DNA of 64,000 bases from a virus. This document shows, piece after piece, positions 2,915-48,819 of the stretch. The stretch lies in the IMG/VR virus record IMGVR_UViG_3300021961_000020, one strand, 5' to 3'. A model generated the notes under the pieces. It made no database searches and was not told where the DNA came from. It was given only the letters and a program-made list of their open reading frames with translations. Each line of letters opens with the position of its first letter. Position 1 is the stretch's first letter. The position numbers were made by a program, and so were the translations under genes.

Positions 2915-2998
2915 TAGGAACGGGGGGACTTGAACCCCCACGACTATATAGTCAGCAGATTTTAAGTCTGATGTGTCTACCAATTCCACCACGCTCCC
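2915..2998 (-). tRNA. trnL: tRNA-Leu(TAA)
   Basis: Reverse complement GGGAGCGTGGTGGAATTGGTAGACAC...CTTAAAA...GGTTCAAGTCC...TTCCTA; long variable arm, anticodon TAA, no encoded CCA. Confidence 0.93.
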
Positions 2999-24162: not shown

Positions 24163-24198
24163 TGGATTACTCCTGAAATACTAAGGTTAGTTAAAACC

Positions 24199-24471
24199 CG
24201 TTCCTTCAGTCGTTTGCGTCCTTGTTATCGAAACATGCTGGGTCTGTATGATTCATCCAGTGAAGGATGAGGTGAGACTTTTCAGTAGGAGTGAAAAGAG
24301 TTGACTCTTCCAATCCCTGCTTTAACCACTTGTAGTCATCACATCTAAGGAAATCCTCAGGAGGAACATGACTAAAAAAGATCAAAGCGAGTGATAACAT
24401 AGGATGAACGCTCCGTTCCGCGACTTACTTGCGTCTCATTCGCTATTCGCAAACAGCGAATGGGATGAACG
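24199..24471 (-). ncRNA. Tandem glutamine-II (Downstream-peptide) riboswitch-like element
   Basis: Two units CGTTCAT[CC-stem-GA]CGCAA...GGAACG at 24471-24414 and 24410-24199, upstream of a DUF4278-like ORF and just after a sigma70 promoter. Confidence 0.65.
24206..24400 (-). CDS. 64-aa hypothetical protein nested inside the second RNA unit
   Basis: ATG directly follows CGTTCATCCT; C-terminal KDAND* is encoded by AAGGACGCAAACGACTGA of the RNA motif. Confidence 0.6.
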   Translation of the reverse strand: MLSLALIFFSHVPPEDFLRCDDYKWLKQGLEESTLFTPTEKSHLILHWMNHTDPACFDNKDAND

Positions 24472-24479
24472 ACAGGTCC

Positions 24480-24509
24480 ATTATAGACCATCTACATGTA
24501 TATAGTCAA
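24480..24509 (-). promoter_or_regulatory. Sigma70 promoter TTGACT-N18-TATAAT
   Basis: Predicted TSS falls just before the first CGTTC of the RNA element. Confidence 0.7.
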
Positions 24510-24542
24510 GTTCTTTTGTAAAATATGATACAATTTTAAAAA

Positions 24543-48674: not shown

Positions 48675-48800
48675 AGTAGACAGATAGTAAGACCATCAGG
48701 GAAATGGTGGAGATACTATGCTCCCCGCACCCTTAGCGGGGATATGAGAGACGGATTTGTGACCCAGCCTAGTCTCGGTCAAGCGGCAGGGAAGTAATGT
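48675..48800 (-). ncRNA. PhotoRC-II-like structured psbA leader
   Basis: Minus strand GACCGAGAC...CCGTCTCTCATATCCCCGC-TAAGGGT-GCGGGGAGCATAGT...ACCATTTCCCTGATGGTCTTAC, resembling the cyanophage psbA 5' UTR motif. Confidence 0.6.
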
Positions 48801-48819
48801 TGCGAATCCTTAAAGGTCC

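Follow-up and report, generated by a model that had tools for sequence, protein, structure and literature searches.

Glutamine riboswitches are described in two types, type 1 (RF01739) and type 2 (RF01704, Downstream-peptide), and both act as ON switches in the cyanobacterial hosts of cyanophages (PMC6212724). DUF4278 has been linked to IF17, and type-2 switches precede DUF4278 genes in marine picocyanobacteria (PMC6212724). In the solved structures of both types, the glutamine site features a C1:G40 pair, a triple with G18 and a long-range C19:G41 pair (PMC6698751). In phages, riboswitches were reported to be rarely used, with only two glutamine aptamers in cyanophage genomes (McCown et al. 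2017, PMC5473149); Klahn et al. (2018) did not treat phages. Here we analyzed a leader RNA in a 64,000-nt stretch of viral DNA (IMG/VR record IMGVR_UViG_3300021961_000020, in the following the window), which stems from a T4-like Synechococcus cyanophage with about 75% identity to known isolates. All leader, nested-gene and operon features lie on the minus strand. On balance, we regard it as rather probable that this leader is a glutamine-riboswitch-type RNA in which two ligand-site cores lie one inside the other, with a helix of the inner core, P2b, enclosing an entire gene, and that its mechanism responds to glutamine.

The leader consists of two units, and the second one is split by a gene. 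Unit 1 reads CGUUCA (24471-24466), the P2a hairpin and then CGCAAGUAAGUCGCGGAACGG. Unit 2 begins 3 nt later with CGUUCA-UCCU, directly followed by the AUG (24400) of an open reading frame (ORF) of 64 codons (24400-24206). Its 3' part, AGGA-CGCAAACGACUGAAG-GAACGG (24222-24198), overlaps the last ORF codons, KDAND, and the UGA stop (24208-24206). A preliminary description of this DNA had located both units here and had placed start and stop of the ORF within the aptamer strands, and our analysis bears this out. In the nested fold that we propose, the outer core would be a type-1 (glnA-like) three-way junction, with P1 formed by the 5'-terminal CGUUC (24471-24467, followed by the junction A at 24466) and GAACG (24203-24199) about 270 nt downstream. 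Further parts would be P2a, loop E (AGUA/GAA) and P3 (AGUCG:CGACU). P3 would not be capped by a loop, rather it would open into a second three-way junction made up of P3, P1' and the long-range P2b. The inner P1' would hence pair the 3' strand of unit 1 with the 5' strand of unit 2, the outer P1 would pair the 5' strand of unit 1 with the 3' strand of unit 2, and P3 would be shared.

Along the RNA, the P2a hairpin (24465-24434; 14 positions, 13 paired, loop UGCG) is followed by the junction J2a/3, CGCAAGUA (24433-24426), which is invariant and in which CGC is the ligand-site strand (with G assigned to the base triple and C to the long-range pair, following PMC6698751) and AGUA one half of loop E. 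The P3 5' strand AGUCG (24425-24421) and a CG step lead into the inner P1' hairpin GAACG-GAG-CGUUC (24418-24406), which also appears in the minimum free energy (MFE) fold and contains a Shine-Dalgarno (SD)-like GGAG (24414-24411) 10 nt ahead of the nested AUG. The P2b 5' arm, UCCU-A-UGUUAUC (24404-24393), contains the nested start codon (24400-24398) and is assigned by folding and covariation to the 3' arm GAUAACAAGGA (24229-24219). The end of the ORF reads AGGA-CGCAAA-CGACU-GA, then AG-GAACG-G to 24198. Here, the inner-core junction J2b/3 is CGCAAA (24218-24213), with CGCA and the final A invariant and A or C at the fifth base, and the P3 3' strand CGACU (24212-24208) overlaps the UGA stop as well as the 5' strand of a 3' hairpin. 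The closing segment (24207-24198) is invariant and comprises J3/1 GAAG, which supplies the other half of loop E, then the 3' strand of the outer P1 and the G at 24198 for the long-range pair.

This architecture recurs far more often than by chance. When viral loci were found via the ORF product alone, 79 of 80 parsed to the same four core strands with the same spacing, and a pattern built only on the inter-unit junction yielded at least 120 further viral loci. The layout is common to about 200 viral loci (199 parsed records), and similarity to part of the region is found in 413 phage records. In 185,579 cellular species genomes the junction pattern occurred in only three contigs, a 7-kb Prochlorococcus single-cell contig and two Verrucomicrobia-binned contigs (L201, L202 and L203), which may be phage DNA. 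Among 120 pattern-found loci, the second-unit hairpin carries a short tetraloop in 34 and a 50-65-codon ORF in 84. The outer P1 5' strand is the same in every parsed relative, where the parser demanded CGTT[CG]A. P2a varies freely in length and sequence with retention of pairing; compensatory pairs were counted.

The nested gene lies within a conserved, covarying helix. In the window, P2b pairs UCCU-(A)-UGUUAUC with GAUAACA-AGGA over 11 bp with one bulged A (-9.0 kcal/mol), it is part of the unconstrained MFE fold, and its loop of 166 nt is the body of the nested gene. The helix is thus longer than the 4-bp stem of the preliminary description; our own count of contiguous pairs from the junction also gave 4 bp and understated it in this lineage. 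Between lineages, the gene-bracketing stem shows the compensatory types UCCCAUG/CAUGGGA, UCCUUA/UAAGGA, UCCUCA/UGAGGA and UCUAUG/CAUAGA. The arms of 102 distinct pairs gave -8.1 kcal/mol compared with -5.1 kcal/mol for shuffled partners (0/200), and at least two bases of the AUG are paired in 79% of them. Contiguous stem length was 5.59 bp, versus 4.54 bp for arms swapped between loci (0/2000). Among members of the ORF64 lineage, UUA and CUU alternate at Leu2 in step with changes of C-terminal codons. At one P2b pair, 41 sequences have AU and 18 have UA, and covariation scored 0.133 versus 0.071 (0/500).

The nested ORF itself is, as judged from its sequence evolution, a real gene, because its 63 distinct homologs contain no internal stop, vary mainly at third positions (30, 25 and 53 variable columns of 58 at codon positions 1, 2 and 3) and have a median dN/dS (nonsynonymous to synonymous divergence) of 0.15. 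ORF conservation, which the preliminary description had named as a check, is evident. At a median dS of 0.8, the RNA cores in the 63 loci are invariant, and the comparison indicates that the RNA flanking the gene is more strongly constrained than the gene itself. The protein matches phrog_13397 (E 3.5e-42), a PHROG of unknown function, and is annotated as a hypothetical protein coding sequence in phage S-RIM8, where RefSeq marks only the ORF. It has a hydrophobic N-terminus and two invariant Cys residues. Pfam and PDB sequences gave no relative, and no function could be derived from Pfam, PDB sequences or the ESM Atlas. Its tail, K/W-D-A-N/H-D plus stop (24222-24206), is written in the invariant aptamer core GGACGCAxACGACUGA. 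Since the last five codons and the stop lie in this core, the protein tail is dictated by the RNA. GGAG stands in the P1' loop only where an ORF follows (44/85 versus 0/35).

The first hairpin, P2a, can hold a gene, too. At about 30 other loci besides L055 (754-975), L081 and L092, it encloses a 61-69-aa two-Cys protein, phrog_6471. Both this family B and family A of the second hairpin (phrog_13397) feature a hydrophobic N-terminus and two invariant Cys residues. BLASTP between the two families found nothing, and their link comes from profile-to-profile comparison only, where hhalign aligned them Cys to Cys with 84% probability (E 7e-6). As the genes nested in P2a and P2b appear to be distant paralogs, this suggests that the riboswitch unit was duplicated together with its gene. 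At L072 and L074, the first unit contains an ORF64-type gene, and the second is compact. At L070 (1235-1790), a glutamine-riboswitch-like unit with the stem UCCCA/UGGGA surrounds a 173-aa endonuclease VII/HNH-like gene (phrog_1035, E 5.6e-17; the label stems from PHROGs, and Pfam gave no match). A further compact unit follows, joined to it by the P3 helix GAGCAU:AUGCUC.

How close are the two cores to known glutamine aptamers? Both keep the nucleotides for the C1:G40 pair, the G18 triple and the C19:G41 pair of the solved site, which is in line with the assignment to glutamine riboswitches in the preliminary description. The outer core reads CGUUCA-P2-CGCAAGUA-P3-GAAG-GAACG-G and corresponds to the type-1 consensus except for CGC...G in place of CGG...C. 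Accordingly, J2a/3 agrees with the type-1 consensus CGGAAGUA of Rfam apart from G being replaced by C, and J3/1 together with the P1 3' strand matches the type-1 consensus GAAGGAACG. Loop E strands flank P3 (AGUA-AGUCG ... CGACU-GAA), and P1 CGUUC:GAACG, the junction A and the adjacent P2 hairpin are all present. The inner core reads CGUUCA-P2b-CGCAAA-P3 and P3-CG-GAACG-G. In both cores CGC...GAACGG would set the putative long-range C:G pair in type-2 orientation, and both positions are invariant. In the inner core, the predicted partner of C24216 is the second G of GGAG (24413).

The shared helix P3, between the strand following CGCAAGUA in unit 1 and the strand preceding GAAG in unit 2, is retained in every lineage. 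Compensatory variants are AGUCA:UGACU, AGUUGACU:AGGCAACU, AGUCAGACA:UGUUCGACU and GAGCAU:AUGCUC. Native partners gave -4.61 kcal/mol versus -3.66 kcal/mol for shuffled ones (0/1000); at one pair of the helix, 8 sequences have AU and 8 have UA, and at another the counts are 15 GC, 2 AU and 2 GU. The compensatory changes indicate that AGUCG/CGACU is a true helix. It had been put forward as a possible kissing contact between two junction loops, of which the pairing is real and the kissing geometry is replaced by a covarying helix. Covariation had also been looked to in P1 and P2; the P2 helices covary, and P1 is invariant and hence uninformative for pairing.

For the inner P1', a variant with GCAACG in the unit 1 3' strand and CGUUGA in the unit 2 5' strand occurs at 5 loci in two backgrounds, with no single mutants. 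At the central pair of P1', 60 sequences have GC and 3 have CG, with pairing retained throughout. The P1' loop has 3-4 nt in every parsed relative, which is weak support since search pattern and parser fixed the length range and the first G. Over the whole nested structure in 20 gene-free relatives, 94.1% of cells were paired compared with 89.5% when shuffled. Seven pairs vary in both bases, and covariation scored 0.160 versus 0.078 (0/500). With the gene replaced by a tetraloop, we calculated -33.5 kcal/mol for the nested fold, -30.9 kcal/mol for a state with the 3' hairpin and -26.3 kcal/mol for two side-by-side aptamers without P3. In gene-free L103, the Rfam type-1 model reached 40.2 bits (threshold 35) by extending P1 across the two units and treating the inner core as an insert of 43 nt within P3. 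No pseudoknot is required for the nested fold. From these comparisons, we favor it with good confidence over a side-by-side arrangement, and the "tandem glutamine-II" RNA of the preliminary description would give way to a nested, pseudoknot-free fold whose outer core is a type-1 three-way junction with loop E. During transcription, unit 1 may fold alone first.

Downstream of the cores, a putative expression platform (24198-24170) contains a small hairpin, GGUU/AACC (24198-24185), which forms in the MFE fold, the strand UUUCAG (24178-24173) and the SD sequence AGGAG (24174-24170) of a DUF4278 gene. In the 3' hairpin, CUGAAG (24209-24204) pairs with UUUCAG, whose last bases start the SD sequence. 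It is 98.7% paired in relatives, with the compensatory types CUGAAG:CUUCAG, CUAAAG:CUUUAG and CCGAAG:CUUUGG; CUAAAG never occurs with a C partner. As CUGAAG is also the end of P3 and a loop E strand, the 3' hairpin and the outer aptamer exclude each other. Without glutamine, the CUGAAG-UUUCAG pairing would partly hide the SD sequence of the DUF4278 gene. With glutamine, P3, loop E and P1 would take up CUGAAG and set the SD sequence free, an ON switch as in the host glutamine riboswitches. The nested and the 3'-hairpin state of the tetraloop construct differ by only 2.6 kcal/mol, and therefore glutamine binding should be able to free the DUF4278 SD sequence.

The nested gene might be controlled in the opposite direction. 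In the folded state, its GGAG would be buried in the stem end and loop of P1' and its AUG in P2b, and folding should hence repress it. A ribosome translating the nested gene and ending at the UGA inside P3 would in turn have to open P2b, P3 and the 3' strand of the outer P1, so that sensing and translation of the nested gene would exclude each other. From the anatomy, gating of the fold by translation is plausible. We may further speculate that both cores bind glutamine and, by sharing P3, form a cooperative sensor that controls two genes oppositely and was duplicated as a module, although we hold this extension only tentatively and think it rather doubtful. High glutamine would then fold the RNA, hide the start of the nested two-Cys gene and expose the IF17-like gene, and ribosomes on the nested gene would hold the sensor unfolded, i.e., a riboswitch gated by a gene in its own aptamer.

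We weighed this nested arrangement against three other explanations. In two side-by-side aptamers, unit 1 would form its own P1, the P1 of unit 2 would span the gene and AGUCG:CGACU would be a kissing helix, which makes the whole a pseudoknot. Owing to the identical P1 strands, 194 of 199 parsed records would allow these pairings, unit 1 emerges first during transcription and might fold by itself, and in gene-free relatives Rfam passes unit 1 alone as type 2 (34-40 bits) and unit 2 alone as type 1 (35-38 bits). Nor is the pseudoknot sterically impossible: we had considered such a fold excluded by the 2-nt linker after P3 and dropped this argument, since a linker of 2 nt is able to bridge the groove when the helix is short. 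However, the three CAACG/CGUUG sequences mismatch both P1 helices of this model and leave the central hairpin intact, the type-2 alignment of unit 1 contains many non-pairs in the P2 of the model, and P3 grows to 8-9 bp in other lineages with the 2-nt linker unchanged. Moreover, this model cannot do without a pseudoknot, which the nested fold avoids with the same set of pairs, and the part outside the pseudoknot is the less stable (-26.3 versus -33.5 kcal/mol). We hence consider the side-by-side arrangement unlikely. Somewhat more improbable still is that the 3' half forms a type-2 pseudoknot aptamer from CGUUCA, P2b, CGCA and the CUGAAG/UUUCAG hairpin, with the loop GAACGG pairing back to CGUUC and the 3' hairpin thus being part of the bound state. 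The type-2 orientation of CGCA...GAACGG, the covarying hairpin that presents GAACGG in its loop, like the type-2 consensus, and the DUF4278 genes behind type-2 switches in marine picocyanobacteria would all fit. In type 2, however, the 3' strand of the hairpin directly follows GGAACGG, whereas the phage RNA has a 14-nt hairpin and another 6 nt in between. The CUGAAG/UUUCAG stem shares nucleotides with P3 and loop E, and the model is incompatible with the covarying P3 and with loop E, of which the AGUA half is invariant. The Rfam type-2 score in the window amounts to just 13.6 bits and falls on unit 1, not on this half.

The split unit could also be an inactive relic, left when a gene landed in a riboswitch hairpin, with the cores kept mainly as homologous recombination sites for cassettes. 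Indeed, the region is mosaic, with near-identical cores joined to different P2a hairpins, tails and downstream genes; genes sit in the first unit at L072 and L074, and L070 has its endonuclease VII/HNH-like gene in such a hairpin. Yet the gene-enclosing helix is kept by compensatory changes even in coding sequence, cores stay invariant at the median dS of 0.8, P3 joins the strands flanking the gene and covaries, and gene-holding forms are the majority (84/120) in the pattern-based sample. A relic thus appears very improbable to us.

Several observations weigh against the nested, glutamine-responsive RNA that we prefer. The four P1 strands being identical, the choice between nested and side-by-side folds hangs on a single compensatory change, present at 5 loci and stemming from perhaps one or two events, and on parsimony. 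Most pairs never vary within the lineage of the window and find their support mainly in other lineages, and related sequences can outscore shuffles even without structure. The MFE fold of the full RNA shows P2a, P1', P2b and the 3' hairpin, with P1 and P3 absent. In addition, the inner core has no loop E and its long-range pair would have to involve the first position in a loop of only 3 nt, a sterically tight arrangement; because of both features, it may not bind ligand. Finally, the window lies below the Rfam thresholds, with 15.8 versus 35 bits for RF01739 and 13.6 versus 33 bits for RF01704, both scores falling on unit 1, and a scan at the gathering threshold and with permissive E-values gave no significant match for either unit in the covariance-model search that the preliminary description had proposed. 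The thresholds are missed because about 210 nt lie inside P3. In gene-free relatives, RF01739 scores 35-40 bits and RF01704 34-40 bits on unit 1, the compact forms thus passing. Standard models hence miss the gene-holding forms. Since the window fails both thresholds while gene-free relatives pass, the RNA is best seen as a glutamine-riboswitch-type variant of the class, rather than as a plain member of either family.

Upstream, the leader is preceded by the sigma-70-type promoter of the preliminary description (24509-24480, TTGACT-18-TATAAT), which agrees with the consensus at 11 of 12 positions and keeps the same spacing to CGTTCA in relatives. We infer a transcript start at about 24473, 1-3 nt before CGUUC, which would put the P1 5' strand at the extreme 5' end of the RNA. 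A candidate NtcA-box-like palindrome, GTA-N8-TAC (24518-24531), precedes the -35 box by about 9 nt. The motif is found in the upstream regions of 117 of 172 distinct relatives, with 99 occurrences at -60 to -55 from the first CGTTCA. Its center is near -51.5; the classical activator position is -41.5. The -10 box is spanned by an inverted repeat, GGTC-TATAATG-GACC (24475-24489). At the same site, relatives have different arms, for example, GGTATG..CATACC and GTGTTA..TAACAC, typically 6-7 nt long compared with 4-5 nt in shuffles. These covarying arms are located in DNA upstream of the inferred transcript start.

Downstream follow three short ORFs. The first (24162-24031) encodes a 43-aa DUF4278 (IF17-like) peptide, assigned via Pfam, PHROG and homologs. 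Its own Pfam DUF4278 match is sub-threshold (E 0.015, 16.1 versus 25.3 bits); 39 of 40 homologs at the same position match DUF4278, as the preliminary description had proposed for this ORF, and the peptide matches phrog_5049 (E 2.9e-10). A 37-aa ORF (24034-23921), whose start overlaps the stop of the 43-aa ORF, and a 56-aa ORF (23921-23751) complete the operon, which ends with an intrinsic terminator (23762-23741). Elsewhere in the window, we found a PhotoRC-II RNA (57.2 bits, 48708-48802, minus strand) and a tRNA (54.8 bits, 2915-2998, minus strand). In relatives L102 and L156, manA RNAs are located within a few hundred bases of the riboswitch cassette.

A full-text literature search for nested or gene-holding glutamine riboswitches, with Ames and Breaker (2011) outside its reach, found nothing, and within the same bounds we found no paper with a layout of two ligand-site cores on one helix and a protein gene inside an aptamer helix. 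In a cyanophage thioredoxin/cve preprint, a theophylline riboswitch is the sole riboswitch mentioned. Glutamine-riboswitch-like leaders in at least 120 viral contigs, as found by the junction pattern, contrast with the supposed rarity in phages. The layout suggests that cyanophages would read the host glutamine level and hence its nitrogen status. Such a reading would set the timing of an IF17-like peptide, which may inhibit glutamine synthetase, and of a small conserved protein with two Cys residues. Moreover, how RNA folding and translation compete can be tested directly on this layout.

Compared with known systems, the phage RNA most resembles type 1 (RF01739), as in the Synechocystis gifB (IF17) leader (PMC6212724). 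They have in common P1 CGUUC:GAACG, the junction A, the P2 hairpin, J2/3 CGxAAGUA, loop E (AGUA/GAA) flanking P3 and a putative long-range capping pair, as well as a DUF4278-family target gene and, likely here, a translational ON platform. Unlike in type 1, P3 of the phage RNA opens into a second core instead of a hairpin, about 210 nt including a whole gene lie within P3, and the long-range pair would be C:G (CGC...GAACGG) where the family has G:C. With type 2 (RF01704, Downstream-peptide; PMC6698751), it shares the CGUUCA-hairpin-CGCA...GGAACGG core with C and G placed for a long-range pair, a hairpin close to the SD sequence with GAACGG in its loop and the DUF4278 targets in marine picocyanobacteria. 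Yet no clean H-type pseudoknot is apparent, an extra hairpin displaces the 3' strand of its hairpin, and its conserved P3 and loop E are absent from type 2.

Two ligand-site cores, probably for one ligand, are also linked in one leader in tandem riboswitches, and this could sharpen the response. Those cores stand side by side, whereas the phage cores are interleaved, with one helix in common. A functional, structured RNA with a helix that closes around a protein gene is moreover reminiscent of group I introns that carry homing-endonuclease genes in peripheral loops, the more so since L070 holds an endonuclease VII/HNH-like gene. In contrast to these introns, the phage RNA is an mRNA leader without splicing, and its usual gene encodes a small two-Cys protein whose start codon lies within the helix.

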